64,000 bases of DNA from Bacillota bacterium (GCA_963929525.1 CAWVJB010000097.1:22914-86913); one strand, 5' to 3'; shown: positions 11,348-54,067, counted from the stretch's first letter. Numbers and translations are program-made. The notes: generated by a model not told the origin, from the sequence alone.

Positions 11348-11511
11348 GACCATTGGGACCAGATCTGTTTGAACCCTTTTTTAGAATTTATAATTTTATA
11401 ATGAAATAACGAAATAAAAAGAAAGTATAGAAAATAAAAACTTTTTCATTCTATACTTTTTTCATATGACTATAATCAAAAAGGGTTCAAACAGATCTGG
11501 TCCCAATGGTC
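11348..11511. repeat. 34-bp perfect inverted repeat separated by a 96-bp AT-rich loop (MITE-like / cruciform element)
   Basis: gaccattgggaccagatctgtttgaacccttttt (11348-11381) and its exact reverse complement (11478-11511). Degenerate third copy at ~11318-11347. Loop contains a nested 8-bp hairpin gtatagaa..ttctatac. Right arm abuts the stop codon of the lysin remnant. Confidence 0.7.
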
Positions 11512-11803
11512 AATTAATTGTTGTACTTGTTGCTCCTGCTCCCACCACTTCTTCTTGAAGTGAACGCCATGTATTACAACCAACAATTCCATCAACAGCC
11601 AATCCTCTTGTTCGTTGATATTCTCTTACCGCATTTTGTGTTGCTGGTCCAAATATACCATCTAATCCGTTTGTACGATATCCCAAAGTATTTAAATCAT
11701 CTTGTGCAATCAGTACATAATTGCTTAAGCTTCCCCTCTTTAGCTGTGGAAATCCACCTGTACTGCAGGCAGGAGAACCAAACCTCTTATCAAAATGTAA
11801 TTG
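11510..11803 (-). pseudogene. 3' remnant (PG_binding_1 domain) of host M15 peptidase/cell-wall hydrolase gene split by prophage insertion
   Basis: Minus-strand frame with no start codon: (stop)QLHFDKRFGSPACSTGG...LGYRTNGLDGIFGPATQNAVREYQRTRGLAVDGIVGCNTWRSLQEE...*. Classic peptidoglycan-binding repeat. Its N-terminal residues HFDK duplicate the C-terminus (..TWVHFDK*) of the 53660-54067 ORF. Confidence 0.7.
11787..11799. other. attL core (TTATCAAAATGTA) of prophage
   Basis: 13-bp identical to 53664-53676. Flanks are host-like on the left and phage-like on the right. Confidence 0.6.
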
Positions 11804-11834
11804 TTACATGCATTCGCTCAAATTAATTTATTGA

Positions 11835-11969
11835 CAATTTTAATTCTAGCTATATTATATACTTTTGCGAAAGTTTTTGTAAACAATTTTACTATAATCC
11901 TTTCTTTCCAATTTAATTCTTTTTTTAATTCATTCAATACTACATCTTTCATATATCCATCTCCTCTTA
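11835..11969 (-). CDS. small hypothetical protein (44 aa)
   Basis: ATG with AGGAGA RBS. MKDVVLNELKKELNWKERIIVKLFTKTFAKVYNIARIKIVNKLI. Below ORF-track size cutoff. Weak support. Confidence 0.25.
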
Positions 11970-12004
11970 CATTTCTCTTTAAGGTATAGATATACTAAAC
12001 ATTG

Positions 12005-12018
12005 TCCACTATGGTGGA
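12005..12018. promoter_or_regulatory. 14-bp palindrome TCCACTATGGTGGA (putative operator), copy 1
   Basis: Perfect 5-4-5 palindrome within a 20-bp direct repeat acattgtccactatggtgga. Second copy at 12330-12343. The two copies bracket the decayed XRE gene. Confidence 0.45.
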
Positions 12019-12074
12019 TATTTTATGAAAGTGCCATTTTCATTTGCAAAAAATAAAATAGCACTAAAATTGTG

Positions 12075-12279
12075 CTATGGTATTACTTTATATAATTCTT
12101 CTATTTTTATATTTAATGCTTGTGCTATTCTTACAGCCATCGACAATGACGGTTCTTTTTCTCCTTTTTCGATATAATTAAGATGTGATTTTGAAATTCC
12201 TGTCATTTTTGCTAATTGTTCTAAACTATATCCGTTTTTCTTTTCTAATTTGCCTTAGTAAAATCTCTATTCTCATACA
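12075..12279 (-). pseudogene. XRE-family HTH regulator disrupted by two single-base insertions
   Basis: Minus strand reads MYENR..ILLRQIRKEK..YSLEQLAKMTGISKSHLNYIEKGEKEPSLSMAVRIAQALNIKIEELYKVIP* only if an extra G (after aatagaG) and an extra C (gaaaaaCgg) are removed. Hairpin gcactaaaattgtgc + U-run follows the stop. Confidence 0.6.
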
Positions 12280-12329
12280 TTTCCACCTTTGATTTAGTAT
12301 GTCCAGATTTCTATATAACATACATTTTG

Positions 12330-12343
12330 TCCACTATGGTGGA
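12330..12343. promoter_or_regulatory. 14-bp palindrome TCCACTATGGTGGA (putative operator), copy 2
   Basis: Identical palindrome ~50 bp upstream of the XRE pseudogene start. Likely autoregulatory operator. Confidence 0.45.
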
Positions 12344-12445
12344 AAAATACAATTTTCTTATATGAAAATTTTTATCAACTCTAATTGATGATATGACATA
12401 TTGGTTTGAATATATCATATTCATTTTAATTAAAATAAAAGAAGT

Positions 12446-12631: not shown

Positions 12632-12814
12632 CCCTATTTTATTGTAGCATTTTTTGCTGGTTTTTGTCGCGAGAAATTTGTCGAAAATTTTGAAAAATCA
12701 GCTTACGACAATCGATTTTAAGACGTTTTCATTTTTAAGTAATATACTTACATACCTTGATTTTTAGGTATTTTCAAGGATTTTAAAAATTTTTTTACTT
12801 TTTTTGAAAAAAAC

Positions 12815-12881: not shown

Positions 12882-13067
12882 ATGAATATGACATCAAAGG
12901 AATTGGTAAGACTTTTAAAGAAAAATGGTTGGTACGAAGTGAAACAAGAAGGTTCTCATTTAAGATTGAGAAAAAAACGGCTACATAGACATTATCGTTC
13001 CTATGCACAACATGGATTTGGCTAAAGGCTTACTAAAAAAATTATTAAAACAGGCAGGACTTGAATA
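12882..13067 (+). CDS. hicA: HicA-family mRNA interferase toxin, frameshifted in an A7 homopolymer
   Basis: MNMTSKELVRLLKKNGWYEVKQEGSHLRLRKK.. then +1 frame ..NGYIDIIVPMHNMDLAKGLLKKLLKQAGLE* (HicA/YcfA fold). Frame 1 stops at 13023-13025. A-run 12971-12977. Confidence 0.7.
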
Positions 13068-13111: not shown

Positions 13112-13519
13112 ATGAAAAAAGAAATATTATTAACATACCCTGCTATCTTCACATATGAAGATGATCAATATTGGGTTGAATTTGTTGACTTAAAAGGTTG
13201 TTTTAGTGATGGAAAAACTTTAGCTGAAGCAATGGAAAATGCTAAAGAAGCTATGGGATTATTTCTTGAAGATTTAGAAGAATATCCTAAGTGTACAACT
13301 GATATAAAAAAAATAAAATTAGAAGATAATCAAATTATTTCTTTTGTAACTATAAACTTGGAAGAACATAGAAAAAAATATGAAAACAAATCTGTAAAGA
13401 AAACTTTATCTATTCCAGCTTGGTTAAATACTATGGCTGAAAAAGAAAATATTAATTTTTCACAATTGTTACAAAAAGCTTTAATGGATACTTTAAATGT
13501 TGACAAATTAAGAAAATAA
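13112..13519 (+). CDS. hicB: HicB-family antitoxin (HicB N-domain + C-terminal RHH-like DNA-binding domain)
   Basis: 135 aa. MKKEILLTYPAIFTYEDDQYWVEFVDLKGCFSDGKTLAEAMENAKEAM is the UPF0150/HicB signature. Directly downstream of hicA. Confidence 0.8.
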   Translation: MKKEILLTYPAIFTYEDDQYWVEFVDLKGCFSDGKTLAEAMENAKEAMGLFLEDLEEYPKCTTDIKKIKLEDNQIISFVTINLEEHRKKYENKSVKKTLSIPAWLNTMAEKENINFSQLLQKALMDTLNVDKLRK

Positions 13520-13636: not shown

Positions 13637-15166
13637 TTATCTGTAAACATTATTTCTTACATAAGCATATCTTCCCGTTTTGACTACATATACATAATCT
13701 ACACTAGAACTTACATTTCTTATTATTCTTACTTGTGTTAAGGGTAAATAAGTGTATCTTGTGCCTGTTAAATTACTGTTAGAATATAGATATGTTCTAT
13801 TTGCTAATCTCTTGTATTGTCCTACTGTTCCATTTGAATAATTAGAACTTGTAGAAGTTGTATAATTAGATGTGTTTATGTATGCTACTCTTCCAGTTAC
13901 ATTTACTCTAACTCTATCTACTGAACTAGATATATTAGATAGTATTGTTACGGTTGTATTAGCTTTATAAGAATATCTTGTACCTGTTAGATTAGAATTA
14001 GAATATAAATAACAAGCTTTTGTTTTTCTTGTTAGACCTACTGTGTTACTAGAACTTACATAACTAGTACTTAGATAAGAAGAACTTACCCAGCCACTTG
14101 CAGGATTTGTAATTCTGCTCCAGCTACCATTATTTTCTGCTACAGTTACTTGTGTTCCTTTTTTTAGTGAACCTATCACTGAACCGTTTGGTGCATTTCT
14201 TACATTTAGATTTAAACTGTTTGTATTAACATATCTAGTATATGTAGATGTTGTTACATTTCCTGTATTCTCTGTTGCTGTTCCATCATGTTCATAGCAG
14301 AAAAATCCTTTTGCATTTGCATAATTAATAAAATTACTAACACTTACATAGACTTTGTTACCGTCTACCGTTACTTTTCCTCTACGTGTACTTGTGTCGA
14401 ATTTCCCGCTATACAAGTATGGGTCATAAACGGTTATAGTATTTCCATTTAATTCTGTTAATACTATAAAATGTCCACCTGTTGTAAATAATCCATTTCC
14501 AACGGAAACTACTACATAATTATTACTTTCTAATAATTGCAATGCTCTTTGTATATCTGATGTTTCTGTATATCCAATATTAAACTCATCTGCAACTGCT
14601 CGGAAGGCTGACCAGTAAGTTCCATTGCTGGCACTTCTGTAACCATACTGAACAAATAAATCTCCTATTTGGTCTGGTGTTATAGCTCCTCTTGTAGCTG
14701 TTACAATCATTGCTGCAGAAGTTGGACCGCAACCCGATGTTCCGATTGTTTGAGAACTATCTCCAACAGAACTATACATATGATATCTCCAACGAGAGTC
14801 TGTTTGATTGTAATATGTTAAGCCTATATAATCTCCTAGTTCTACATTCCAGGTGTTAGCTTTGTCTCCTTCGTATGCAATCTCTCCTTGTAATTCAAAA
14901 CCTTCATCTTCTACTTCTTGTTCTGCAGATACTTCTTGTTCATCTTCTTCTGTTTGCTCTACAATCTCTGTAGAAGGTAATTCTTCGATTTCTTGTTGAG
15001 ACATATTATATGTAGTTATATAGTCTTTTATTTCGTTTACTGCACCTGCGACGATTTCTTCTGTAGAATTATCTTTGTTTACATTATAGAAACCTAAACC
15101 TGCTAATATAGCAACAACCACAGTTGCAATCGCTAGAATTATTTTCTTTTTCTTACTTTCATTCAT
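13637..15166 (-). CDS. putative phage endolysin / cell-wall hydrolase: signal-anchor + C39-like cysteine peptidase + SH3b + C-terminal wall-binding repeats
   Basis: 509 aa. N-terminal TM (KKKKIILAIATVVVAILAGLGF), acidic linker, Cys/His peptidase core (SGCGPTSAAMIV ... GGHFIVLT), SH3b-like segment (NVRNAPNGSVIGSLKKGTQVTV...GWVSSSYL), two ~55-aa C-terminal repeats. Adjacent to holin. Confidence 0.55.
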   Translation of the reverse strand: MNESKKKKIILAIATVVVAILAGLGFYNVNKDNSTEEIVAGAVNEIKDYITTYNMSQQEIEELPSTEIVEQTEEDEQEVSAEQEVEDEGFELQGEIAYEGDKANTWNVELGDYIGLTYYNQTDSRWRYHMYSSVGDSSQTIGTSGCGPTSAAMIVTATRGAITPDQIGDLFVQYGYRSASNGTYWSAFRAVADEFNIGYTETSDIQRALQLLESNNYVVVSVGNGLFTTGGHFIVLTELNGNTITVYDPYLYSGKFDTSTRRGKVTVDGNKVYVSVSNFINYANAKGFFCYEHDGTATENTGNVTTSTYTRYVNTNSLNLNVRNAPNGSVIGSLKKGTQVTVAENNGSWSRITNPASGWVSSSYLSTSYVSSSNTVGLTRKTKACYLYSNSNLTGTRYSYKANTTVTILSNISSSVDRVRVNVTGRVAYINTSNYTTSTSSNYSNGTVGQYKRLANRTYLYSNSNLTGTRYTYLPLTQVRIIRNVSSSVDYVYVVKTGRYAYVRNNVYR

Positions 15167-15182
15167 TTTTCTTTTTCCTCCT

Positions 15183-16289: not shown

Positions 16290-19172
16290 CTAATCATTAT
16301 TTTGATTAGCTTTTTGACTATTTTCTTTATCCATTTCATAATTTTTTAACTTTTCTTCCAATTTATTTATTTTTTCTTCTAATTCTTTGTTTTTAATTTC
16401 TTGTTTTTGTATGTATTCTTGAAATCCTGCATATAGTACTGATATCATACTATACAGACTTGACCCTTCTTTATTTTCACTTAATATTTCGTCAGGTGCA
16501 TCATATCCTTTTCCTATGACCACTCCAAATTGTTTGTATTTTTTGCCCTTAAAATTAAATTCACAAATATCTGTATTTTTTACAATATCTAAAAAACTTT
16601 TTTCAATTTCTTTTATTTTTTTTATATTTTCTTTCTTTTCTTTTTTTGATGTATTAACAAAGTCTGGTGCATAAACTGAAGCATCAAAATATCCATTGCT
16701 AGATGCATGTATCGTTCCTACATATAAAGTACCACTTTGCAAATGTATTTCTCCTTCTGATATTTCTATTTTTCCACCATTCATCATAATAGCAGGATAT
16801 GTTTTAAGTGGATATGATATCTCAAAAACTTTGGAATTTAATTCTGAATTATCATAAATTGTAAGTCCTGTATTCGATACATAAAGCCATGTTCCTTCTT
16901 CATTTTGTCTTATTTGCAATCCTTGAGCTTTATCAGATTGTGCATAAACATCTATATCTGTGCAAATAATTCTTCCATTTTGTATTACAACACCTCTTTT
17001 ATTGTTTTCGGTATCTGGAAAATCTCCACTTTGAAATTTTCCAGATAAATTGGCATTAATAGCCGATAATGTTCCATCTGTATCAACTTTAAAGTTTCCA
17101 TTTGCAGATATAGTTCCGTTAATATTTAATCTATTTGCATCTATTGTCACTTGTTCAGCACTTTGGTTTATCTTAGAAATAATTTCATCGTCTCCAACTT
17201 TTTTACTTACTTCTAAATTTATTTCTTTTGCTGTTTGAGTAATTGAACTATTCATTTCAACTACTGCATTTTGCAATCCTTCTTGTGTAGCAAAAATGTC
17301 TAAATAATCATTCTTTATAATATATTTTGCAGTATATTCTAATCCTTCGTATTCTTTTATATAAATATAAGTATCTTTATCAAAAGTCTTCAAGGTTATA
17401 TCTTGTAAATTTTCTACCACTTCATTTTCTAATTTATATAAATTTAAGTTTGAATCTACTCCTATTCTCCTTGTAACAGTAGTTTTTCCATTTACTATGT
17501 TCAATTCATCATATGTATCGTTTAAACTTCTCAATGGTTCACTTAGCATTACATCTATTATTTGTGCTTCATTGCTTATTGTACTTCTATTTTGTTTGTC
17601 ACTTATTAGTGTGAAGTGGTCCCCTAAAGGTACTAAAGTGTTACTAGGTACCAGTGTATTACTTGGAACTAAATAAATGAATTTATCACTATTTCCTTTT
17701 ATTTTAAAATTTAATAAATACTCTTCTCCTGCAACTGTATCTTCTAAATATATTTCGTTTGTTCCTGTTATTTCTCGACTAAATTCTTCTATACTAGAAA
17801 CCTGTTGTTGTATTTGTCCTAGTTGCAAGGTTATTGCTGCAATTTGTGTATTGTAATCAGAAATAATATTTGCTAATCCCTCTATTCTACTAACGTTCAT
17901 TGTTCCTGTTGTAATAAAATCAGCATTTATTTGTCCATCCATTGTGATAGCTACTTCAAAATGTCCTTCATAACCATTCGAGCTAAAACCAATACCACCC
18001 AATCCAAATCGCCATACATTTTCTGCTTCTTCTTTTGGAATTTTATCTAAAATCAATATTTCATTATCATCTATATATACATATCCATTTTTATTTAAAG
18101 AATTAATTAAATCTGTTTGTTGTTGTATAACTGTTTCTTGATTTGATACTGTTTGACTAATTTGATTTATAGTGTTTTTTATATTGTCGAATTTAGCTTT
18201 TACATCTCTTGTAAAGTTCCCAAAAGTTAAAGATTTTACTTTTTTAGATATAATGTCATATTGATACTCTAAGACTTCTGTTTGTATAGTTACAAGTGGA
18301 TGCAATACTTGAATAGTATCTCCTATTTCCATATCATCATTTATATCAGATGTAGTTGTATAGCTCATTTTAGGATATTGGTTTTCTTCTATATATGCCT
18401 CAGCATTTGTTCTTAATTCTTCTATTAATGCTTCTTCTGTTTGTTCCTCTTGTTCTAATTCAGTTTGAAAATCTACTGTTCTTGTATATGGCTTTTCATA
18501 TTGTACATCACTTTCTATATATTTTTCTGGTAACATTAATTCATTTGAGCCTACAGGATATAATCTAGTCACAACACTGGACCAATCTTCATAAATTTCC
18601 ATAGATTGCATATTTTTTCCGTATATAATGCTTTCTCCATTATCGTGTCCAACACTTTGTAAAAAACTAATATTCCAGTTATCTGCATCAAAAACACCAT
18701 TCCATCTTTCTTCTATTGTTGCCCATGCTTCTAACAGATTTTTTCTAATAAAATATGCAGTATTTACATTTTCAACATTAGAATATATAGTAAAAGGACT
18801 GACATTATCAGTCCTGTCATTTATGTAATTTAGAGCATTTAGTCCATTTTGATTTGTTGGTCTTACATCTACCAAGAAATAATCTTCTGCATCAAACATT
18901 ACATGGTTTGCCGTAAAAATTATTTTTCTATTTGTCTTTTTTATATCATTTCCAATTCTGAAAGCCTGTGGATTTAACTTTGATTTTGTTTTCACGACAC
19001 ACAATTTATCTTTTTCTATATAATCTTTATATTTAATTGGTATTTCAACTTCAATATACCAACCATTTAAAGATTTTTTCTTGTATTCTAAGCATTTTGT
19101 AGGATTAATAACTATATTGCCTGCACTAGTAAAATCTTTATCATTTGCATCAAATATTTTTATCATAGCCAT
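16290..19172 (-). CDS. phage tail-associated lysin / tail fibre protein (Tal, prophage endopeptidase-tail family N-domain)
   Basis: 960 aa directly after Dit. N-terminal ~350 aa typical of siphoviral Tal. C-terminal coiled coil (KNKELEEKINKLEEKLKNYEM). Confidence 0.65.
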   Translation of the reverse strand: MAMIKIFDANDKDFTSAGNIVINPTKCLEYKKKSLNGWYIEVEIPIKYKDYIEKDKLCVVKTKSKLNPQAFRIGNDIKKTNRKIIFTANHVMFDAEDYFLVDVRPTNQNGLNALNYINDRTDNVSPFTIYSNVENVNTAYFIRKNLLEAWATIEERWNGVFDADNWNISFLQSVGHDNGESIIYGKNMQSMEIYEDWSSVVTRLYPVGSNELMLPEKYIESDVQYEKPYTRTVDFQTELEQEEQTEEALIEELRTNAEAYIEENQYPKMSYTTTSDINDDMEIGDTIQVLHPLVTIQTEVLEYQYDIISKKVKSLTFGNFTRDVKAKFDNIKNTINQISQTVSNQETVIQQQTDLINSLNKNGYVYIDDNEILILDKIPKEEAENVWRFGLGGIGFSSNGYEGHFEVAITMDGQINADFITTGTMNVSRIEGLANIISDYNTQIAAITLQLGQIQQQVSSIEEFSREITGTNEIYLEDTVAGEEYLLNFKIKGNSDKFIYLVPSNTLVPSNTLVPLGDHFTLISDKQNRSTISNEAQIIDVMLSEPLRSLNDTYDELNIVNGKTTVTRRIGVDSNLNLYKLENEVVENLQDITLKTFDKDTYIYIKEYEGLEYTAKYIIKNDYLDIFATQEGLQNAVVEMNSSITQTAKEINLEVSKKVGDDEIISKINQSAEQVTIDANRLNINGTISANGNFKVDTDGTLSAINANLSGKFQSGDFPDTENNKRGVVIQNGRIICTDIDVYAQSDKAQGLQIRQNEEGTWLYVSNTGLTIYDNSELNSKVFEISYPLKTYPAIMMNGGKIEISEGEIHLQSGTLYVGTIHASSNGYFDASVYAPDFVNTSKKEKKENIKKIKEIEKSFLDIVKNTDICEFNFKGKKYKQFGVVIGKGYDAPDEILSENKEGSSLYSMISVLYAGFQEYIQKQEIKNKELEEKINKLEEKLKNYEMDKENSQKANQNND

Positions 19173-19858
19173 CTATCCTTTCTTTTAGCTTTTATTGTGC
19201 ATCCTCCTTCTTTTATTGTAACTACATTATTTCCTGGACTTAATTTTGGAAATTCATAACCTATAGTTAATTGTCTATTCCTGTTTAATCCTTCATACAA
19301 TGCCGTTTTTTCTTCACAATCTATTTCAACATATTCATTATCCTCAAAACTATATTGAAATCTTATTCCTGCTACTTCAATATCGACATCATCATAATCA
19401 GTTTTCTCTAATCTGATAATTGGTCTACTGTATATATTTCCTGTATTTTCAATATTGTTTGTAACAGCAACAAAATTGTCCTCAATTTTCGTCCAGAATG
19501 GATCACGTATAAAATTTGTATCAATTATTCTTATAATTGTATCTCTTTGTGGCTCTAATTCACTATAAAATCTTGCTATTGTTTTTCTTCCTTTATACTC
19601 AAACTCTCCTTCTCCGTCTAACCAAGCAAGAATGTCATCTATTTTATTTAGATTTAAGCATTGCACATAGATGGGTCTTTCAACATAAGAATAACCTAGT
19701 TCATTAAATATTGCTCCATCTCTTCCTTCTATTTCTATTGTTTCGTATCTTTTTGCTGCTCTTGCTATAAAATGTTCTTCTTCTTCAATTATTACTTGCA
19801 TATCTGTACTAGATATTCCTTTAAACTTAAACATGTTACACCACCTTGTACAATTCAT
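19163..19858 (-). CDS. distal tail protein (Dit, Sipho_tail family)
   Basis: 231 aa between TMP and Tal. Confidence 0.6.
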   Translation of the reverse strand: MNCTRWCNMFKFKGISSTDMQVIIEEEEHFIARAAKRYETIEIEGRDGAIFNELGYSYVERPIYVQCLNLNKIDDILAWLDGEGEFEYKGRKTIARFYSELEPQRDTIIRIIDTNFIRDPFWTKIEDNFVAVTNNIENTGNIYSRPIIRLEKTDYDDVDIEVAGIRFQYSFEDNEYVEIDCEEKTALYEGLNRNRQLTIGYEFPKLSPGNNVVTIKEGGCTIKAKRKDRWL

Positions 19859-22800
19859 CTTTTACTATTTTTGCAAATCCATCTTCATCTAAAGTAAATT
19901 TGCAATTTGTTAATGCTTTTGTTATTGCATTTGCCATTTTGTCATAATCTACATTAACAATCATTGTGTTTGTATTACTATTCATATTTGCGTTTCTTGT
20001 ATTTTCATAATCTATATTTTTTAATTCACCAGACATCTCTTGTGACATATTTCTTACTTTTTTTATTAATTGAGGAGAAGATTTTTCTAAAGTTTTGCCT
20101 AATCCTTCTACCATGTCAGGCATCCATTTTTCATATTCTCTTAGAGGTCCTGTATCCGGTCTTGAAAAGTGTAAGAAGCTTGCTATTTTACTAGCTAAAT
20201 TACTTAATTTGCTAGTAAACCAATTACTATTTCCCTTGGATTCTATTCCTTTTCCTAATCCTTCTACCATATCAGAACCCCAAGCATAGCTATTATTATT
20301 TCTAACAGCTGTTTCAGCTCTTCCTACAAGATTTCCTGCCTCGTTTTGCACAGATGTATCTTTTTTTAATGCTTCCGAACTTTCAGAAATCTTTTCTTTT
20401 GTCCTATCTGGTAAAGTTAAATTTCTGCCAAAGACATCAGTCACTACATTAGCCTTGTTTTCTGCGGCATCTGACATAGTTATATCTAGTGCTATTACAC
20501 CTGTAGATTCTTCAATTCTTTTTCTAGTTTCTTCTGGAAGTCTCATTAATCCATTTGAATACTCTGTATAACTTGAATCAGCTACTTTTTTCCAAGCTTG
20601 AATTTGCTCTGGTGTTAATTCTTCTATTGTAGAAGTTTGTTCTACTAAACTATTTACCAGATTAGCAAGTTTTTGTTTCTCTGTTTCTAATTGTGAATTT
20701 AATATATTAGCTTGATATTCATCGTTTGCATTTTGTGCTTCTTGTAAACTATTTTTTAACACGTTCATATACTCAGTTTGAGTATTTATTTGTTCCTCAA
20801 TTGTTTGTTGGGAAGCTTGTTTTACTTCTTCATAAGATGTCATTATACTTTGTGTGGCTTCTTGTATTTGTTGAGCATTTCCAGAAACACTTGCTGATTG
20901 TAAATTCTCATAATCTTGTATTGTTTTTCCATATTGTCCTATTAATTCTGTTTGTTCTCCTATTTGTTGAGCTATGCTGGTATATAATAACTCTGCTTCC
21001 GCTCTTTCTTTTGCATTTCCTGTTGCCATTTGATTAGCTGCATCTGCTAATTGTTGTTTTAATCCTACTAATGTTTTTGTAGCTTCCGCCTGCTCTTTTA
21101 TTGCTGTTTCATATTCTTGTTGATATGCATTTAATACTGCTTCTGCTTTTTTCTTTTCAATTATTTGATCTATATTATTTTTTAACTCTTGATATTGATC
21201 AATGATGTTTCCGTTTAAGTCATATTCTGTACCTAATGCATTATTTAACTGATTTAAAATAACTTGTGCTCTATCTTCATATCCCTGTTTTACTTTTCCG
21301 TTTTCATCAGTTATCTTTTTTAACTCATCTACTAACCTAGATGTATTTTCAATTTCAGATAAATTTCCAGATAATGTTTCATTTCTAGTCTCTGCTAGTG
21401 ATTGCCAAGATTGACTTTGATTTTCAACCTCTTCTCTTAGTCCTTCTAATGATGCTTTTTCTTGTGTTACTGCTATATGATGTGCTGTATACGCAGCAAT
21501 CAGACTTCCTATTGCAATAGTTGTTAAACCAATAGGATTGCTTAATTTTCCAAATACATTTGCCAAGCTGTTTACACTTGCAACGGATGAAGTTGTTTTC
21601 CCCGTTGCTACTCCTATTGCTTGAGTAAATATACCAATTCCTTGGGTGACACCACCTATTACCTGTCCTGCTGTTCCCATTGTTTTTATTAATGGTCCTA
21701 CTCCTGCTACAAACAATCCTATTTTTACAATGTTTTCTTTTTCTGCATCACTCATATCATTTAGTTTATCTACAAATCCTTCTGCCATATCTATCAAATC
21801 TTCTAAAACTGGTAGCATTTCTTCACCGAAGTCTGCTCCAAGACTTTGTAATCTCTTTAGTTGAGTTTCTGCCTTTTTCTTTGTTGTGTTATATAACTGG
21901 TCGATAGATTTTTGCATCGAATCACTACTTTTTGATATTCCAGCATCCATATTACTAAAGCTTGTAATAACTGTTGGTCCTAGGTCTTCCCACATAGTAC
22001 CAAATAAATCAACACCTGCAATGCTTTGAGAAACTTTATCATCCATACTTCCTAGTCTGTTTACGACTTCTATAAATGCTTGCTTTGCTTCTTCTCCACC
22101 ATTAGCGAATTTTTTTGCCATATCATCTGCATTTAGACCAATTCTCTTAAATCCATCTATTGTTGTATTACTTCCATCAATTACTCTTATAGAAAATTCT
22201 TTTACTGCATCACCTATTTTATCTAAGTTAAATGCTCCATTATCAGCGCCAACTTTAAAGATATTAAACATGTCTTCTGCTGATAGTCCTAATTTTCCAA
22301 ATTGAACAGAATACTCATTAATATTGTCTAGTAGCTCGTTTGAGAAATCTAATCCTTGTTTTTTACCTTCTGCAATTAAATTAAAAGCCTCATCTGCGCT
22401 AACATTAAGATTGTCCATCATTGCTTTTACTGCTCTTACACTTTCTGATACATCGTATCCAAACAAATCTCTTAATGCTATTGCTTTTTCTGTAATATTT
22501 TGCAAATCCTGTTCATTTAAGTCTTGCAACTGCATCGTTACTTGTGCCATAGAATCTGCAATATCTTCATATCCTTCACCATAATTATTGCTATTAATAC
22601 TTTCTAATACTCGTTTGTATTTTTCTGTTTCATTTTCAGCTGTATTTGTAGTGCTAACATATTTAGCTACTGCATTTTCTAAATTCATAGCATTATTTGC
22701 TAGTGCGACACCACCTGCTGCTACTCCTGCAGAAATACCAGATGCTTTATTTCCAACATCACTTATTTTCTCACTTACGTCATTTATTTTTTTTGCATAA

Positions 22801-42217: not shown

Positions 42218-43171
42218 TTACACCTCTTTGTCTATCAAACTCCAGAATTTTTCTGCTCCATAATCATTTATCAATATCTTTCTTAATTCTTCTAAGCTAA
42301 TTTCTTCTAAATCTTGAATGTTATGCTCTTCACAAAATTTATTAGTTCCATATTGACATGCTCCTGTTATTGCTCTGTATTGTGCTCTATTTACTTTTCC
42401 TGTTCTCTTAATTTCTGCTACTATATTTTCTATTTCTTCATTTTGTGTTTTCTTATATATTAAATCATCCATTGCTTCTTTTAATGTCTCTCCGTGTGCT
42501 GATAAGTCTTTCTCTTTTACTATATAAACTTCTTCATTTGTATTATATAAATCTAATGCTTTTATTATTGTTATTCCTTCCCTCTTCTTTTCTGATATTT
42601 TTATAGTCTTTATATCATCTGAAATATCAACTGGATAAAGCTTTTTATTATATAATGTGTAATATTCTGTTTCTTTCAATATTCTTCCTTTATAATCTTT
42701 ATAATCTTTATTGCCTATTTGAGCTGATATAGCAAAACTTGGTATGTAATTATCATTTTCATCTTGTTCATATTCGCACAATGAAATCCATGTTCCTTTT
42801 TTAGCTTTTATTATAGATTTATAGCCACAAGCAAATCCAACAGAATTGTTTCCATTGATACCTATTTGTGCACTGTTTCCACTTGAACCTATTTGTGCAC
42901 TGTATCCACTTGAACCTATTCGTGCACTGTTTCCACTTGAACCTATTTGTGCACTGTATCCACTTGAACCTATTCGTGCCCAGTCTCCACTTGAACCTAT
43001 TTGTGCACTGTATCCACTTGAACCTATTTGTGCACTGTATCCACCGTTATCATTATTTTCATCATTACTATTTTGTTTTACATTTCTTATAAAATCAATT
43101 AATTTTTCACTAAAGTCACTAACTAATCTAACTCCTAATTTTTCTATTAATCCTTCAAAAAATTCAAACAT
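42218..43171 (-). CDS. hypothetical protein with seven tandem nonapeptide repeats (GSSGYSAQI)
   Basis: 317 aa. Repeats YSAQIGSSG/NSARIGSSG/DWARIGSSG encoded by near-perfect 27-bp DNA repeats. Confidence 0.5.
   Translation of the reverse strand: MFEFFEGLIEKLGVRLVSDFSEKLIDFIRNVKQNSNDENNDNGGYSAQIGSSGYSAQIGSSGDWARIGSSGYSAQIGSSGNSARIGSSGYSAQIGSSGNSAQIGINGNNSVGFACGYKSIIKAKKGTWISLCEYEQDENDNYIPSFAISAQIGNKDYKDYKGRILKETEYYTLYNKKLYPVDISDDIKTIKISEKKREGITIIKALDLYNTNEEVYIVKEKDLSAHGETLKEAMDDLIYKKTQNEEIENIVAEIKRTGKVNRAQYRAITGACQYGTNKFCEEHNIQDLEEISLEELRKILINDYGAEKFWSLIDKEV
42848..43046. repeat. 7 x 27-bp in-frame tandem repeat (cctatttgtgcactgtWtccacttgaa)
   Basis: Units start at 42861, 42888, 42915, 42942, 42969, 42996 with 0-4 substitutions each, plus a degenerate unit at each end. 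Confidence 0.75.
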
Positions 43172-46556: not shown

Positions 46557-47777
46557 TCACCTCACTAAATTCACGAATGTACTTAGTTGTTTATTAAATT
46601 TAACTTTTACTTTTCCAATGTCTCCTGCTCTCTGTTTTGCTAGTTTTAATGTTGTAATATTATCCTCTTCATTTTCTTTATAAATAAAAATTATATTATC
46701 TGCATCTTGTTCTAAACTTCCACTTTCTCTTAAATCTGCTAGCGTTGGCTCTCCTATGTTTGCATTTCTGTTTAATTGGCAAAGTGCAATTATTGGAATA
46801 TTTATTTCTAAGCTTAATAGTTTTAGTCTTCTACTTATTTCTGCTACCTCTTGTTCTCTTAAATTAAATTTTCCTTGACTTTTTAGTAGTTGAATATAAT
46901 CTATTATCAATAAATCTAATTTATCTTTATTTTTTAATCTCTTAGCCATAACTTCTATATCTTGTATTGTTCTTACTCTTGTATTTATTGTCAAATTTAA
47001 TTCAGATAATTGTATACTTGCTCTTGCTATCTTTTCCCAATCTCCCTCTTCTAATGTTCCGAGTCTCATCTTGTAACTGTTTACTATACTCTGTTTTGCT
47101 ATCATTTTTTGAATCAATTGTGTTTGAGACATTTCTAAACTTGCAAATACAACATTTTTCTTTTTTGCTATTTCTTGTGCTATCTGTAATGTTAATGTTG
47201 TTTTTCCCATTCCTGGTCTTGCTCCTATGATTGTTAATTCTTGATTATGTAGTCCACATGTTAATTTGTCTAAATCAAAAATTCCTGTATATAGACTATA
47301 ATCATTTCTGTTGTTGTAATTTCTTTCTATCTCATTTGTTGTTTCTGCTATTTGCTCTACAAATGTCTTTTCTTTTGTATTTATTTTTTCTATATTGTTT
47401 AATTTATCTATACAATCTTGAATATATATATCTATGTTTCCCTCTTCTGTAACATTTGCTAAAATACTTTGTGCTAATTCAAATACTTTTCTTTTTTTAG
47501 ACAATTCTTTTAATCTGTTATAGCAACCTTCTGCTGTTATTCCATAGATGTTATTTCCCAAATTTGATATGTATTCTAAAATTTGTTTTTGATTTCCTTT
47601 TATTTTATTTTGTACTGCTAAAATTGATATATCTTCCTTTTCTAGTTTTAGCTCTTCTATTGCTTTTGCTATCATTTTGTTTTTTATATTTATAAAATCT
47701 GATTCTTCGATGTCTAATTCTTCGTTTTTAAAAATTATGTAATAAAGTACTGCTTTTTCAATTTCTTCATCATACAT
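46557..47777 (-). CDS. replicative DNA helicase (DnaB family)
   Basis: 406 aa. Walker A GARPGMGKTT, Walker B LLIIDYIQLL, DnaB C-domain motifs. Confidence 0.85.
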   Translation of the reverse strand: MYDEEIEKAVLYYIIFKNEELDIEESDFINIKNKMIAKAIEELKLEKEDISILAVQNKIKGNQKQILEYISNLGNNIYGITAEGCYNRLKELSKKRKVFELAQSILANVTEEGNIDIYIQDCIDKLNNIEKINTKEKTFVEQIAETTNEIERNYNNRNDYSLYTGIFDLDKLTCGLHNQELTIIGARPGMGKTTLTLQIAQEIAKKKNVVFASLEMSQTQLIQKMIAKQSIVNSYKMRLGTLEEGDWEKIARASIQLSELNLTINTRVRTIQDIEVMAKRLKNKDKLDLLIIDYIQLLKSQGKFNLREQEVAEISRRLKLLSLEINIPIIALCQLNRNANIGEPTLADLRESGSLEQDADNIIFIYKENEEDNITTLKLAKQRAGDIGKVKVKFNKQLSTFVNLVR

Positions 47778-48540
47778 CTTTTTCTCCTCTCAGTTTTTTA
47801 AAGTATTCTTCTTCTGTCATTGTACATTCTTTGTATTCTATTTCCTCTTCTTCTGTTTGTTCTTTCTTATTGCTTTGATTTTTATTCGACTTAAATTCTT
47901 CTTGACTGATTCTAAATTGTTTGGCTGTTTTTATATTGTTATCCACACAGTTAACTAAGATTGTGGATATATATTTCCAATTTCTTTTATTTCTCGAAAC
48001 TGCCTCTTTCATTACTTCGATTATTAAATCCTCTTCTAAGTTATCTACTTTTAAAAATTTATCAATATCTTCTGAAACGAATGGTGTGATTAATGTGATA
48101 TTGTTTTCATAAAATTCTATAATTTTTTTATATGCTTCTTCTTTTTCTTTTTTATTATTAATACTTGTAATATTCTCTTTGACGTTTTCGTCAATACCCT
48201 CTTGATTTTTTTGACAATACCCCTTGACGATTTCGTCAATACCCCCTTGATTTTCAATATTAACTAAAGAAATTATTCTTTTGTCTATTTCTTTAGAGTC
48301 TTTTTTATAAAAAAATGTAATGTATATATATCCTTTTTTATTTAGTTGACTAATCCATCTTGATATTGTTTCTTTACTAACACCATACAAATTTGCAAAA
48401 TATTCATTTCCTGCCCAGCATATTCCTTTTTCGTTACATAGTGCCGTTATTTCACTGTATAACAATTTTGCGTTAGCCATTAATTCTTTATCATATCGAA
48501 CTTTTGCAGGTATAATTGCATAATAATTTGGATTTTCCAT
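47770..48540 (-). CDS. phage replisome organizer / replication initiator (N-terminal Phage_rep_org_N-like)
   Basis: 256 aa. YSEITALCNEKGICWAGNEYFANLYGVSKETISRWISQL typical of the replisome-organizer N-domain. Carries the internal iteron array. Confidence 0.6.
   Translation of the reverse strand: MENPNYYAIIPAKVRYDKELMANAKLLYSEITALCNEKGICWAGNEYFANLYGVSKETISRWISQLNKKGYIYITFFYKKDSKEIDKRIISLVNIENQGGIDEIVKGYCQKNQEGIDENVKENITSINNKKEKEEAYKKIIEFYENNITLITPFVSEDIDKFLKVDNLEEDLIIEVMKEAVSRNKRNWKYISTILVNCVDNNIKTAKQFRISQEEFKSNKNQSNKKEQTEEEEIEYKECTMTEEEYFKKLRGEKDV
48181..48254. repeat. phage origin iterons inside replisome-organizer gene
   Basis: Three copies of (T)TCGTCAATACCC(C)CTTGAT at ~21-22 bp spacing, plus palindromes GACGttttCGTC / GACGatttCGTC. 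GC-rich island in an AT-rich gene. Confidence 0.6.
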
Positions 48541-50325: not shown

Positions 50326-50562
50326 TTATCTTGTTGATTTTTTATCAACTTCTGTCGTAAAAAAATAATCCATTGTTTCTTGTGCTGTTAAATCAAAAAT
50401 ATCAATGGCTGTTTGTATTTCATCTTGATCAAACACATTCTTATTGTTCAACTTATAACTTAATGATGCCTCTGAAATACCTAATTTTTGTGCAAATTCT
50501 GATTGTTTTGAAAAACATTCCTTTATTCTTCCTTTTAACTTACTGTAATCATATTGTTTCAT
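50326..50562 (-). CDS. Cro-like HTH regulator
   Basis: 78 aa. SEFAQKLGISEASLSYKLNN HTH. Divergent from the CI-like repressor. GGAGGAG RBS. Confidence 0.55.
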   Translation of the reverse strand: MKQYDYSKLKGRIKECFSKQSEFAQKLGISEASLSYKLNNKNVFDQDEIQTAIDIFDLTAQETMDYFFTTEVDKKSTR

Positions 50563-50733
50563 TTTTCTCCTCCTTTCGGTTGATTTTTTATCAACTTCGT
50601 AATTATATTAACAAAACAAAAATATCTTGTCAATAGCTTTTTTGATTTTTTTTCAACTTTTTTTGATTTTTTATAAAATAAACTTGATTTTTTGTCAATT
50701 TTACTTTATAATACAATTATTGGAGGTACATAT
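50563..50733. promoter_or_regulatory. divergent PR/PRM-like promoters with repeated TTGATTTTTT(A)TCAA operators
   Basis: Perfect palindrome TTGATTTTTTATCAA at 50580-50594 (between cro -10 and RBS) and again at 50334-50348. Degenerate copies near 50650-50700. cro promoter TTGACA-17-TAATAT/TATAAT on the minus strand. cI promoter TTGATT-17-TATAAT on the + strand. Confidence 0.55.
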
Positions 50734-51381
50734 ATGAAATTAGTAGACACATTTGGGAATAGACTACAAAAAGCGTTAGAAGATTCTAACATGAAGCAAG
50801 TAGATTTAGTAGAAAAAACTGGCCTAGATAAAACCTTAATAAATAAATATCTAGCAGGGTTAATGAAAGCTAAGCAAGATAAATTAACTATTCTTGCAGA
50901 AGCTTTAAACGTTAATGAAGTTTGGCTTATGGGGTATGACATTCCCAAAGATAGAAATATTAAATTAGATAAGCTCGGAAATCCAGTAGCTGAAATTCCT
51001 CTTTTAGGTACAGTAAAAGCAGGATATGATTATATGGCACAAGAAAACTGGGAAGGTATGATAGAAGTTGATAAAGATGTAATCAAGGATGGTGCCGATT
51101 ATTTTGCTTTAAAAATAAAAGGAGATAGTATGTCCCCTGTACTAATAGAAAATGACATAGTTGTTATAAAAAAACAAGAAGATTTTGAAAATGGAGACTT
51201 GGTTGTTGCTATTATCAACGGAGATGAAGCCACAATAAAAAAAGGTAGAAAAAATGATACTAGTATTGTTTTACAGCCATTTAATCCTAACTATGAGCCA
51301 CTTATATTTACTAATGATGAAATGAAAACTATACCTGTTACTATAGTTGGAATAGTGAAACAATTAAAAAGGGATTTTTAA
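50734..51381 (+). CDS. CI-like phage repressor (HTH + S24 LexA-type peptidase domain)
   Basis: HTH QVDLVEKTGLDKTLINKYLAG. S24 domain with Ser-Lys dyad (KGDSMSP ... IKKGRK). ATG 50734 with GGAGG RBS. Track start 50692 is a TTG. Confidence 0.8.
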   Translation: MKLVDTFGNRLQKALEDSNMKQVDLVEKTGLDKTLINKYLAGLMKAKQDKLTILAEALNVNEVWLMGYDIPKDRNIKLDKLGNPVAEIPLLGTVKAGYDYMAQENWEGMIEVDKDVIKDGADYFALKIKGDSMSPVLIENDIVVIKKQEDFENGDLVVAIINGDEATIKKGRKNDTSIVLQPFNPNYEPLIFTNDEMKTIPVTIVGIVKQLKRDF

Positions 51382-51401
51382 TTATAGAGGAGAAATATAA
51401 T

Positions 51402-51908
51402 ATGTTAAAAGATAGAAAAAATATCATTATTTTAATACTATCAATAATCATATTTATAATGGTTATCGGAATAATTGTTTTCTTAAGTATTAATTCAGCT
51501 ACTAAAGAAAGAAAATTAGATGGATCTAAGATGTCTTCTTCTGAATTACTAGAAATGTTTGAAAATGAAGGCTATGAAATCAAGATGAGCAACATTGATG
51601 GAACTCTTTATATCAACCTAGAAAACGAAAGAGATGGTATTACTATTCAAAGGATTCCTGATACTCTAATAGGTACTTTAATGACTTTTGATGATGATAG
51701 TATTAATGATGAAATGGCAGATTTAATAACTATTTCAGAAAACGACTCAAAGGAAAAACAAGAACAATATGAAGCTTATAAAAGTTGGATGGAATATTAT
51801 AATATAACTAAAACACAATTATCTGAAATGCTAGATACGTATTACAATAACAATAAAGATAAAATTGAAACAATTAATACAGAAGATTTATTAAAATCAC
51901 TTAATTAA
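51402..51908 (+). CDS. membrane-anchored hypothetical protein co-transcribed with cI (candidate superinfection-exclusion/lysogenic-conversion gene)
   Basis: 168 aa. N-terminal TM IIILILSIIIFIMVIGIIVFL. Immediately downstream of the repressor gene. Confidence 0.45.
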   Translation: MLKDRKNIIILILSIIIFIMVIGIIVFLSINSATKERKLDGSKMSSSELLEMFENEGYEIKMSNIDGTLYINLENERDGITIQRIPDTLIGTLMTFDDDSINDEMADLITISENDSKEKQEQYEAYKSWMEYYNITKTQLSEMLDTYYNNNKDKIETINTEDLLKSLN

Positions 51909-52056
51909 AAAGAGAATTTATGCTCCACTGCGACACGGTACATAAATTCTCATACATAAACACTATTGAAAGTGGTTACTTTTATATTATATATGAAAGT
52001 ATCTCTATTTTCAATAGCTTATTTACAAATTTATTGAAAATGGAGGTATTTTTAAT

Positions 52057-53610
52057 ATGAAAAACAATATAAATAATAATATGGAATATTATTGTTGTTA
52101 TCTTAGAAAATCAAGAAAAGATATGGAAGCTGAAGCTCATGGACAAGGTGAAACCTTAGCCAGGCATGAAAAGAGATTAAAAGAATATGCATCTTCTGTT
52201 GGTATTAAAATAAGTAAATTCTATAGAGAAGTAGTATCTGGTGAAACTATTTCTGCTCGACCAGTTATGCAACAGTTGTTAACAGATGTTGAAAATGGAA
52301 TGTGGACAGGAGTATTAGTTGTAGAAGTAGAACGTTTAGCAAGGGGTAATACTTTAGACCAAGGTATCGTGTCTAATGCATTTCAATACTCTAATACAAA
52401 AATAATCACACCTTTAAAAACTTATGATCCTAACAATGATTATGATGAAGAATATTTTGAATTTGGATTATTTATGTCTAGAAGAGAATATAAAAAAATA
52501 AATCAGAGACTTCATGATGGTATTTTAGCTAGTGTAAAAGAAGGCAAACATGTTGGAACCTCTGCTCCATACGGATACGAAAAATACAAATTACCAAAGC
52601 AAAAAGGATATTCTTTAAAGATAAACCAACGCGAAGCAGAAATGATAAAGTTAATATTTGATTTATATAATTCTGGAAATGGACTAGATTTTATATCTCA
52701 TAAGTTAAATGCTCTAGGTTTTAAACCTCGCAGAGGAAAAGATTTTGCAAAATCTTCAATAAAACATATCCTTACTAATCCAGTTTATATAGGAAAAATT
52801 AAATATACAGATAAAGCAACAACTAAAAAAGTTATTAACGGAGAAATTGTTAGAGTAAAAAATGAGAATAAAAATATTATATATGTAGATGGTTTACATG
52901 AGCCAATAATTGATTTAAACACATGGAATAAAGCACAAAATATACGCAAAAACAATTTAATTAATCACGTTAAAGTAGATTATACGTTAAAGAATCCAAT
53001 GGCTTCTATTTTGAAATGTGGAATTTGTGGAAAATCTTTAGAAAGAATTACTTATTCTGGAAGAAACGATATCAGAGTTTGTTGCAGAAAATGTAAAGAA
53101 AACATTGGTAGTAATATAAATTTTGTAGAAGAACGATTATTAGAATCATTAAAATTGTTGCTCAATGATTATAGAATGAAAGTACTTAATAATGATAATA
53201 CAGATATTGATGCATTAGTAGACATGAATAATAAGAGTATTAATAATTTTAAAACCGAACTAGAAAAAAATCAATCTCAATTAAATAAGACTTATGATTT
53301 ATTAGAACAAGACATATATACTAAAGAAATATTTCTTGAACGTTCTACTTATCTAAAACAACAAATAGAAAATATTAGCGAACATATAAAACAATTAGAA
53401 AAAAATAATAAAGATATTTTAAAAGGAAAGAATAATAAAGAAGTTCTAATCCCCAAAATAGAAAAAGTAATAGATACTTATTATGAAACAGAAAATATAG
53501 AATTAAAAAATAAATTATTAAAAAGTGTATTAGAAAAAGTTGAATATTTAAAGATTAATCCTAAAAATAAAGATGATTTTAAATTGAAATTATATCTTAA
53601 ACTATACTAA
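52057..53610 (+). CDS. large serine recombinase (phage integrase, resolvase/invertase N-domain + recombinase + zinc-ribbon domains)
   Basis: 517 aa. N-terminal catalytic-domain motif YLRKSRKDMEAEAHGQGETLARHEKRL (nucleophile Ser in RKS), GVLVVEVERLARG, Cys cluster CGICGK...CCRKCKE, C-terminal coiled coil. Confidence 0.9.
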   Translation: MKNNINNNMEYYCCYLRKSRKDMEAEAHGQGETLARHEKRLKEYASSVGIKISKFYREVVSGETISARPVMQQLLTDVENGMWTGVLVVEVERLARGNTLDQGIVSNAFQYSNTKIITPLKTYDPNNDYDEEYFEFGLFMSRREYKKINQRLHDGILASVKEGKHVGTSAPYGYEKYKLPKQKGYSLKINQREAEMIKLIFDLYNSGNGLDFISHKLNALGFKPRRGKDFAKSSIKHILTNPVYIGKIKYTDKATTKKVINGEIVRVKNENKNIIYVDGLHEPIIDLNTWNKAQNIRKNNLINHVKVDYTLKNPMASILKCGICGKSLERITYSGRNDIRVCCRKCKENIGSNINFVEERLLESLKLLLNDYRMKVLNNDNTDIDALVDMNNKSINNFKTELEKNQSQLNKTYDLLEQDIYTKEIFLERSTYLKQQIENISEHIKQLEKNNKDILKGKNNKEVLIPKIEKVIDTYYETENIELKNKLLKSVLEKVEYLKINPKNKDDFKLKLYLKLY

Positions 53611-53612
53611 CT

Positions 53613-53646
53613 ACAAGCATAGATTATTTTTATAGTCTATGCTTGT
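53613..53646 (+). terminator. hairpin after integrase gene
   Basis: acaagcatagatta / tagtctatgcttgt 14-bp stem (1 mismatch), loop ttttta. Weak U-tract. Confidence 0.4.
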
Positions 53647-53659
53647 AACAATTACACCT

Positions 53660-54067
53660 TCATTTATCAAAATGTACCCATGTTGGTGTTAATGAAATTG
53701 GCTCTACATATGTCCATACTCCTGAATTATTCGCACTATTCCAAAGAACTCTTCTTCTCTCTGCTGACAAAGTTTGCCCAACATCAAAAGCTACTCCTGC
53801 ATAATGTTGACTTTGATTTCCATGTCCCCCTTCATATGGTCTTTTAAAAGCAAATCCCACTGGTATTGGTCCTCCAAAAATATATCTTTGACTATTCCAG
53901 CTTTGCATCGTTCTTTTCGTTGTCCATAATATATTACTTTTGCTTGAACCTCTAAATTCTCTTACTCTTAATGTTCCATTTGTATTGTATGGCATTGGGT
54001 CAGCTTCATTCCTATAATAGGTTTCCATTTTATCTGTATCATTGTTAAACACTAATATTTTTGCCAT
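53660..54067 (-). CDS. M15-family (LAS) L-Ala-D-Glu peptidase catalytic domain; 5' half of a host cell-wall hydrolase gene truncated by the prophage
   Basis: 135 aa. Zn-ligand motifs SQHYAGVAFD (SxHxxGxAxD) and WVHFD. Stop codon supplied by phage DNA directly after the att core. PG-binding C-half found at 11510-11803. Confidence 0.65.
   Translation of the reverse strand: MAKILVFNNDTDKMETYYRNEADPMPYNTNGTLRVREFRGSSKSNILWTTKRTMQSWNSQRYIFGGPIPVGFAFKRPYEGGHGNQSQHYAGVAFDVGQTLSAERRRVLWNSANNSGVWTYVEPISLTPTWVHFDK
53664..53676. other. attR core (TTATCAAAATGTA) of prophage
   Basis: Identical 13-mer to 11787-11799. Lies in the last codons (VHFDK*) of the truncated M15 peptidase ORF, ~55 bp from the integrase stop. 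Reconstructed attP has flanking inverted repeat GTAACAAT/ATTGTTAC. Confidence 0.6.

Follow-up and report, generated by a model that had tools for sequence, protein, structure and literature searches.

A stretch of 64,000 nucleotides (nt) of Bacillota bacterium DNA (GCA_963929525.1, CAWVJB010000097.1:22914-86913), referred to here as the window, carries a prophage within the coding region of a host gene for a peptidoglycan (PG) hydrolase. The joined junctions, the homologs of the rebuilt protein and a naturally empty site in contig L097 all demonstrate that the prophage interrupts the coding region and that its exact removal rebuilds the gene; the split of one host gene by a prophage is thus confirmed. 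The locus consists of the following features:

53660–54067, minus strand: hydrolase 5' fragment, codons 1–134 plus Lys135 and a stop from phage DNA
11510–11788, minus strand: hydrolase 3' fragment, codons 135–226 plus stop, with the conserved linker and the PG_binding_1 domain
11789–53665, unstranded: siphovirus-type prophage, 41,877 bp between the TT positions
52057–53610, plus strand: large serine recombinase, 517 aa, with Resolvase, Recombinase and Zn-ribbon domains and a YLRKS19 motif
54077–54085 and 54100–54132, minus strand: ribosome-binding site (RBS) and promoter block (GTAACA-N16-CATATATATAAT) of the hydrolase gene

An earlier note, made on this DNA before any database search, had described the two halves of the gene, and both were recovered. 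The minus-strand open reading frame (ORF) at 53660–54067 encodes 135 aa, ends in ...LTPTWVHFDK* with a stop supplied by the phage, and contains a complete M15/LAS catalytic domain in which the invariant H82, S86, H88, D95, H132 and D134 are all present. The minus-strand frame at 11510–11803 reads QLHFDKRFGSPAC...TTIN*, opens with QLHFDKRFGSP and runs into the PG_binding_1 domain. The 3' fragment (11510–11788) has no ATG start, and its sole in-frame starts are TTG or GTG codons at least 39 codons into the frame. Neither half of the gene in the window shows a frameshift or a stop.

The 13-mer TTATCAAAATGTA, which the earlier note had placed at both junctions, is present in exactly two copies in the window, at 11787–11799 and 53664–53676. 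The number of copies expected by chance is 0.05, and two or more matches occurred in none of 100 shuffles. Identity between the two junctions stops sharply at 13 nt on both sides. The recombinase gene ends 53 nt from the right copy, in keeping with the distance of about 55 bp given in the earlier note.

When 54067..53664 is fused to 11786..11510, an in-frame ORF results, as had been foreseen, although its product is 226 aa long and not about 228. A search with the joined protein returned 3,526 database homologs, and nearly all of the best 120 are exactly 226 aa in length, with 100% query coverage and 81–98% identity. Against intact orthologs the joined protein is 98–99.6% identical. Contigs of the same species were retrieved through exact-protein look-ups, and one of these, L097, supplied the prophage-free relative that the earlier note had wished to see compared. 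It carries an uninterrupted attachment site (attB) in the same strain, and it matches the window at 99.67% over the right flank (57009–53664) and at 99.96% over the left flank (11799–1). These two alignments overlap by precisely the 13-nt core.

Attachment sites and the point of exchange

The left and right attachment sites (attL and attR) that bound the prophage are composed as follows:

11757–11829, unstranded: attL, with host B arm, TT (11787–11788) and phage P' arm; 13-nt identity at 11787–11799
11796–11808, unstranded: distal inverted-repeat arm of attL, TGTAATTGTTACA
53634–53706, unstranded: attR, with phage P arm, TT (53664–53665) and host B' arm; 13-nt identity at 53664–53676
53644–53656, unstranded: phage-arm repeat of attR, TGTAACAATTACA

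The phage site (attP) reconstructed from these two junctions is about 42 bp long, with perfect 13-bp inverted distal arms, TGTAACAATTACA and TGTAATTGTTACA, centred on TT. The best dyad centre is this same TT in the window attP and in the free phages L087–L089, with 20, 17, 19 and 20 of 25 positions complementary in these four attP sites. In the window the central TT (53664–65 and 11787–88) forms the first two bases of the 13-mer, and attB has TT at the corresponding place. In the coding sense, the crossover reads GAT-[AA]-G, at Asp134-Lys135.

Every partner of the reaction occurs in nature. Contigs L103 and L104 encode a recombinase protein 100% identical to that of the window, followed by exactly the attP that had been rebuilt in silico, and the 86 nt past the core are 100% identical to window positions 11787–11872. 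The attR region of L100 is 100% identical to that of the window. A second attB allele of the same species, in which Asp134 is encoded by GAC instead of GAT, is found in L098, and the same phage (99.75% nt identity) sits in an L098-type GAC allele in L101 and L102. Thus, exact empty sites and free attP occur in nature, and the presence of empty, occupied and free-phage forms indicates that the phage is active now or was so very recently. Pattern searches of IMG/VR gave no matches to the exact 25-nt attP junction and none to a degenerate attR pattern.

The GAC allele locates the exchange. In the attR of its lysogens the phage arm ...CACCTTCAT is followed by TT and then by GTCAAAATGTACCC. The base directly after the TT is of host type (G; the corresponding attP base is A) and the base two before it is of phage type, which confines the exchange to T|TT. 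Aligned with attB (L097, L098) and attP (L103, L104), the attR sites (window, L100–L102) and the attL site (window) are exact attP x attB hybrids. Strand exchange between attP and attB therefore takes place at one dinucleotide, within the codons for TWVHFDK. The 13-bp core of the earlier note holds as an identity, but as a site of exchange it is reduced to the TT at one edge; the remaining 11 nt are attP/attB half-site mimicry, shared by the phage P' arm and the host B' arm. The attP variants of L087 and L088 mimic the GAC allele instead. The target stretch ACNTGGGTNCATTTTGAYAARAG, which holds the TWVHFDK codons, is the best-conserved part of the gene: of 84 intact genes, 41 have CATTTTGATAA and 71 have GAYAA.

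Recombinase lineage and gene content of the prophage

The recombinase was matched by PF00239 (E 2.8e-16), PF07508 (1.3e-21) and, weakly, PF13408 (0.0049), and it matches the phrog_95 integrase with an E value of 6.7e-100. A full-length comparison with the recombinase of Clostridium tetani phage phiCT453A gave 40% identity. Relatives with 63–81% identity were found in viral and metagenome collections and fall into three groups. The first consists of free phages with attP (L087, L088, L089 and L093). The second consists of lysogens whose junction is with the 5' fragment, as for the window prophage (L090, L092 and L094), with host genes 75–95% identical. In the third group, lysogens L085, L086 and L091, the 3' fragment follows the recombinase on the same strand, and AA stands in place of TT exactly 20 nt from the arm. 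In serine integrases the central dinucleotide sets the orientation of integration. The flipped dinucleotide of the third group thus accounts for the opposite orientation of these prophages in the same gene.

One gene position has been hit in the window and in L085, L086, L090, L091, L092, L094, L101 and L102, by recombinases that are 63–100% identical and at the same dinucleotide. Across host species, the phage lineage is specialised for this site, which its members enter in either orientation. According to Mageeney et al. (2020; PMC7192596), regulated gene integrity is indicated by at least two independent integrations of a tight integrase clade in the same gene at the same position. The hydrolase gene shows this pattern and is a new candidate for regulated gene integrity.

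Other elements were seen near the same codons. In L095 (Logan SRR26434397), an unrelated large serine recombinase of 533 aa, 29% identical to that of the window, lies about 11 nt upstream, after TGGGTA; the hydrolase homolog of this contig (65% identical) occupies 464–1015 and the recombinase 947–2548. The family representatives P0182 and P0252 also diverge directly after ...TPTWV, which suggests that further element families may use this hotspot. P0479, P0416 and P0411 were considered as additional insertions and set aside, as their divergence near residue 142 looks like frameshifts.

Two non-coding elements border the recombinase gene. A block about 40–130 nt before its start is conserved in six phages (window 51930–52020 and L085–L089), reads CGACA.GGTACATAATTCTCA... 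and includes a 9-bp inverted repeat, CTATTGAAA (51963–71) and TTTCAATAG (52009–17). This block could be an operator or a 5' untranslated structure that governs recombinase expression. Directly past the recombinase stop is a perfect 10-bp hairpin, CAAGCATAGA...TCTATGCTTG (53614–53645), which is kept in all relatives and whose 3' arm extends into the distal attP arm (GCTTGTAAC).

Other genes recognised in the prophage include a lysogeny switch and modules for replication, packaging, head and tail:

50326–50562, minus strand: cro-like helix-turn-helix (HTH) gene, lysogeny switch
50692–51381, plus strand: cI-like repressor with HTH and Peptidase_S24 domains, lysogeny switch, divergent from the cro-like gene
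51402–51908, plus strand: 168-aa ORF with no assigned function, between repressor and recombinase and on the same strand as both
47770–48540, minus strand: DnaD-like loader or initiator, replication
46557–47777, minus strand: DnaB-like helicase, replication
31606–32049, minus strand: TerS, packaging
29967–31640, minus strand: TerL, packaging
28791–29957, minus strand: portal, head
27956–28813, minus strand: head protease
26764–27936, minus strand: major capsid protein, head
24545–25174, minus strand: major tail protein
19836–23213, minus strand: tape measure protein, tail
19163–19858, minus strand: Dit, tail
16290–19172, minus strand: tail protein
13637–15166, minus strand: putative phage lysin, 509 aa, with Peptidase_C39_2-like and SH3 domains
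12882–13025, plus strand: HicA-like, apparently truncated, toxin-antitoxin cargo of the left arm
13112–13519, plus strand: HicB, toxin-antitoxin cargo of the left arm

Genes for an HNH endonuclease, an RNA ligase and a PAPS-reductase-like protein are also present. The structural, replication, lysogeny and recombinase ORFs are all long and intact. The GC content of the prophage is 27.6%, against 28.5% in the flanks; the host genome is GC-poor, with about 28% across the window. When 24 kb of the prophage was compared by megablast with 50,697 deposited phage records, no close relative was found. A sigma-70 scan of the lysogeny region did not rise above shuffles. Within 12000–12340, TCCACCATAGTGGACAA occurs twice on the minus strand, in both cases shortly after a promoter-like CATA(A/T)AA and before two small left-arm genes, of which one is an XRE-type HTH gene. 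An early-region ORF of 317 aa (42218–43171) contains two tandem 90-nt copies that are 90% identical, at 42847–43044.

The interrupted hydrolase gene and its surroundings

The intact hydrolase of 226 aa consists of an N-terminal zinc peptidase domain of the M15/LAS fold, a conserved linker and a C-terminal PG_binding_1 domain (residues 159–211). Searches of Pfam, NCBIfam and the Protein Data Bank (PDB) with the window protein matched PG_binding_1 only and left the N-domain unmatched. A profile of diverse N-domains found only Hedgehog N-domains in the PDB, with weak scores (E 0.04–1), and all 24 of these matches align on the SxHYxGxAxD zinc motif. PF08291 (Peptidase_M15_3) was matched by 40 of 98 diverse relatives at E <= 0.01, with a best value of 9.5e-6, and not by the window protein. 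The zinc-binding H-x6-D ... H triad is present as SQH88YAGVAFD95 and WVH132FD134, and H82, S86, H88, D95, H132 and D134 are invariant across the 98 relatives. The M15 assignment of the earlier note is upheld for the family and the fold, but not as a match of the window's own protein to a Pfam M15 model. No signal peptide is present, as residues 2–8 form a confidently modelled strand of the fold in an AlphaFold2 (AF2) model built on a diverse alignment; a model from a shallow alignment (80–98% identity) had a predicted confidence (pLDDT) of 54.6 and was discarded.

The insertion severs the catalytic domain from the linker and the wall-binding domain, and the phage provides the third base of Lys135 and the stop. 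The 135-aa fragment retains every invariant catalytic residue. It loses the linker, in which R136, F137, G138 and C142 are invariant and P140 and A141 nearly so, and the wall-binding domain with its invariant C205.

Diverged species share the upstream motif xACA-N16/17-CATAwwATA, located 31–44 nt (mostly 35–42) before the start codon of the hydrolase gene in otherwise unconserved surroundings. Of 81 distinct upstream regions, 57 contain the strict form, AC-N16/17-CATAnnnTA; shuffles gave 0.26 on average and never more than 3. Across 1.43 Mb of related loci, 73 strict motifs are well placed (before an RBS and an ORF), and 61 of them precede this gene; no other gene family has more than two. Being concentrated at the hydrolase gene, the motif is not a generic promoter type. 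In Clostridioides difficile, sigma-K promoters have AC at -35 and CATATAAT at -10, and sigma-E promoters have ATA at -35 (PMC3789822). The motif of the hydrolase family fits the sigma-K consensus. PG hydrolases are known members of sigma-K regulons, namely CwlC and CwlH in Bacillus subtilis and CD1898, CD2184 and sleC in C. difficile (PMC3789822). The conserved sigma-K-type promoter suggests that the hydrolase is probably a late mother-cell sporulation enzyme, with a role in mother-cell lysis or in the spore cortex or coat.

At least 564 species-level genomes of uncultured gut Clostridia encode the gene; their sources are samples from humans, rabbits, chickens and goats. In the intact loci of hundreds of species it is located just upstream of the division and cell wall (dcw) cluster, mraZ-rsmH-ftsL-PBP-murE (PBP, penicillin-binding protein), with a small variable island between. 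The left flank of the window has the same dcw order:

3148–5139: PBP
5236–5733: FtsL
5763–6692: RsmH
7028–7453: MraZ

The variable island of the window (8178–10248) contains a RhuM gene, a 336-aa neighbour and an HTH gene; that of L001 contains a nucleotidyltransferase/HEPN pair and that of L002 a 417-aa protein, and L002 also has a Fic gene upstream of the hydrolase. Between the PBP gene and murE is an ORF of more than 1,008 aa that runs off the left end of the window (1–3100, minus strand). It has tandem repeats of about 290 nt (374–1226) that are 78–82% identical, and encodes a surface protein whose Big_2 and pectate-lyase domains are seen in L097–L099. On the other side, a giant protein of 2,827 aa (55169–63652, minus strand) has GH94 supersandwich and catalytic domains and a glucoamylase-like domain, resembles a cyclic beta-1,2-glucan synthase or phosphorylase, and is conserved in the closest relatives; an exact look-up of this GH94 protein found none on record.

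Two PHP-domain genes of 292 aa each (89% identical in protein, 91% in nt) form direct repeats around the locus, at 10342–11302 and 54151–55112; the earlier note did not mention them. The right copy (about 54150–55169) is an insertion of about 1 kb relative to the closest other species (L005–L012). Both copies are present in L097, and the L099 assembly breaks inside the left one. Recombination between them could lead to loss of the hydrolase gene together with the prophage. A duplicated locus was considered in place of a split gene and rejected, since the PHP duplication excludes the hydrolase and L097 has both copies around an intact gene.

In some strains the hydrolase gene itself has decayed. 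In one strain background of the same species, a 186-aa NT5C/HAD-like gene has taken the place of the promoter and about the first 91 codons (L098, 433–1442; L101, 3726–4286). This decayed form keeps attB, and the same phage still integrates into it (L101, L102). The independent lysogen L090 (4098–4503), with a recombinase 81% identical to that of the window, has a 1-nt insertion at codon 82/83 of the 5' fragment, outside any homopolymer, which reflects either a pseudogene or an assembly error. Truncated and frameshifted hydrolase genes are common in the family. Taken together, these cases indicate that the gene is dispensable in at least some strains.

Competing explanations and comparison with known systems

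The explanation that very probably applies is that an intact-looking, active temperate siphovirus of 41,877 bp resides in a hydrolase gene of gut Clostridia, which it enters and leaves by means of its serine recombinase. In lysogens, the 5' fragment would be expressed as a truncated peptidase. The cI-like repressor probably maintains lysogeny, and its S24 autocleavage domain implies that DNA damage would induce the phage. The recombinase, together with a directionality factor, would then excise the prophage and restore the gene exactly. This mechanism is that of ordinary serine-integrase lysogeny; what is new here is the sigma-K-type promoter of the gene, together with the lack of a signal peptide in its product. 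Several observations weigh against parts of this explanation. No recombination directionality factor was recognised in the prophage, such factors not being homologous across phages. L103 and L104 are only about 93–94% identical to the window across the immunity region and are thus very close relatives, not necessarily the same phage clone. An XRE-type HTH gene (about 12075–12274) appears to be split by a 1-nt insertion and hicA (12882–13025) looks truncated, defects that could reflect slight decay or sequencing error. The promoter class was assigned from the consensus and is thus putative, and in the window and its closest relatives the promoter copy has an additional TA (CATATATATAAT) that takes it outside the strict pattern.

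The two left-arm cargo genes that look frameshifted or truncated would also fit a fixed, defective prophage, unable to excise, in which the hydrolase is permanently inactive and its fragments are decaying pseudogenes. The frequency of broken hydrolase genes in the family, suggestive of dispensability, points the same way. Such a prophage is nevertheless very improbable: the key phage ORFs are long and intact, the same strain occurs with an exact empty site (L097), free attP contigs carry a 100% identical recombinase protein, and the two halves of the gene are undamaged and join into a protein 98–99.6% identical to intact orthologs. Even less credence is given to the view that the hydrolase is phage-derived, as the endolysin of a neighbouring degraded element, or that the fragments are unrelated genes or an assembly chimera. 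A catalytic domain with PG_binding_1 and no signal peptide is indeed endolysin-like, and the flanks hold variable cargo (RhuM, a toxin-antitoxin pair, PHP genes). Against this stand the constant position of the gene upstream of mraZ-rsmH-ftsL-PBP in many species, its presence in at least 564 species-level genomes and the recovery of both junctions and the empty site in independent assemblies. Among the 50,697 phage records, the N-domain occurs only in two unverified contigs, and the one examined is bacterial chromosome. This record, MT835563.1 (L096; 'UNVERIFIED: Bacteriophage sp.'), was rejected as a phage homolog because it is a high-GC bacterial chromosome fragment; it encodes ProRS, an EF-G-like GTPase, DapF and a protein with six PG_binding_1 repeats.

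A further possibility extends the active-phage explanation to sporulation. As in SPbeta or the skin elements, a sporulation-controlled directionality factor would, in addition to SOS induction, excise the prophage in the mother cell and rebuild the hydrolase gene early enough for mother-cell lysis or spore maturation, and the forespore would keep the prophage. The earlier note had called regulated excision during sporulation conceivable; the conserved sigma-K-type promoter of the target gene lends it indirect support, and the phage side lends it none. In its favour, the target lacks a signal peptide, PG hydrolases belong to known sigma-K regulons (PMC3789822), and a gene for an alpha/beta-type small acid-soluble spore protein (SASP) occurs in a relative (L002, L003) that has an 82% identical hydrolase. 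The recombinase lies downstream of the repressor, in a lysogeny-operon layout comparable to that of the recombinases of SPbeta and of the C. difficile skin element, which are expressed constitutively (PMC5595907). Two unrelated serine recombinase families converge on the gene, many independent integrations share one position (the pattern of PMC7192596), and neither half in the window carries a frameshift or a stop. In addition, phiCT453A, whose recombinase shares 40% identity with the present one, is apparently a sigK-site prophage. The 'site A' prophages of C. tetani lie in sigK and have been termed skin-like (PMC5553647); from its name and the record note 'similar to CTC01067', phiCT453A is taken to be one of them.

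On the other side, a strict sigma-K/sigma-E scan found no match in any prophage intergenic region, with counts within those of shuffles, although a consensus-based scan of this kind could overlook imperfect promoters, the sprB promoter being an example. The L098-type gene lacks its promoter and about the first 91 codons and still receives the same phage; rebuilding the gene cannot be the purpose in such a host. The 5' fragment of the L090 lysogen is frameshifted, the conservation of the catalytic-motif codons is enough on its own to explain the choice of target by the phages, and the host itself is only a putative spore former. Excision of this prophage under sporulation control is accordingly regarded as unlikely but still in contention. 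Similar doubt attaches to the wider proposal that active phages of gut Clostridia act like SPbeta, with mother-cell excision from a sigma-K-dependent peptidase gene on whose catalytic-motif codons at least two unrelated recombinase families converge. If it were true, carriage of the phage would gate mother-cell lysis or spore release, and the enzyme would be made only at the end of sporulation. Lysogeny would then be linked to spore release and transmission.

Whatever the role of excision, the locus adds to the serine-integrase catalogue a well-documented natural attP/attB pair with its crossover mapped to the dinucleotide through a natural polymorphism, along with naturally occurring variants of either orientation. 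It also adds a new candidate for phage-regulated gene integrity in abundant, uncultured gut Clostridia.

As an M15/LAS peptidase, the hydrolase was compared with the L-Ala-D-Glu endopeptidases Ply500 and LysB4, with VanX, VanY and the Streptomyces DD-peptidase, and with the Hedgehog N-domain. Its domain order, with the catalytic domain first, then a conserved Cys-containing linker and PG_binding_1, differs from that of 1LBU and 4XXT. It resembles the sigma-K PG hydrolases CwlC, CwlH, CD1898, CD2184 and SleC in promoter type, in the absence of a signal peptide and in having a wall-binding module, which in SleC is likewise PG_binding_1. These enzymes are amidases or a lytic transglycosylase, unrelated to the M15-like catalytic domain predicted here.

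Among elements that interrupt genes, the clostridial sigK elements (C. tetani site A, Clostridium perfringens PhiS63 and the C. difficile skin element) likewise have clostridial hosts and a serine recombinase by the att site, and they split a sporulation gene, sigK, as the present prophage splits a probable one. Both the target gene and the att sequence differ here. Listeria phages A118 and phi10403S in comK provide another example of a gene reversibly disrupted by a site-specific integrase, and the cases of Mageeney et al. (2020; PMC7192596) share with the present lineage a tight integrase clade and multiple independent integrations at one position. Unlike in these Listeria phages and the Mageeney cases, both orientations occur here, and regulated excision would be hypothetical.

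A close parallel is SPbeta in spsM of B. subtilis, where the SprA integrase and the SprB directionality factor excise the prophage and rebuild the ORF (PMC4191935). Like SPbeta, the prophage described here is an intact-looking, probably inducible temperate phage with a large serine recombinase, located inside the coding region of a gene that is sigma-K-dependent in B. subtilis and has a sigma-K-type promoter here. The short att core, the inverted repeats and the exact rebuilding of the ORF on excision are also shared. The differences are that spsM serves polysaccharide synthesis and the present target is a PG peptidase, that the host is uncultured, and that no mother-cell promoter appeared in the prophage scan. 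If the sigma-K promoter and mother-cell excision both proved true, the SPbeta/skin paradigm would reach a cell-wall hydrolase and gut commensals.

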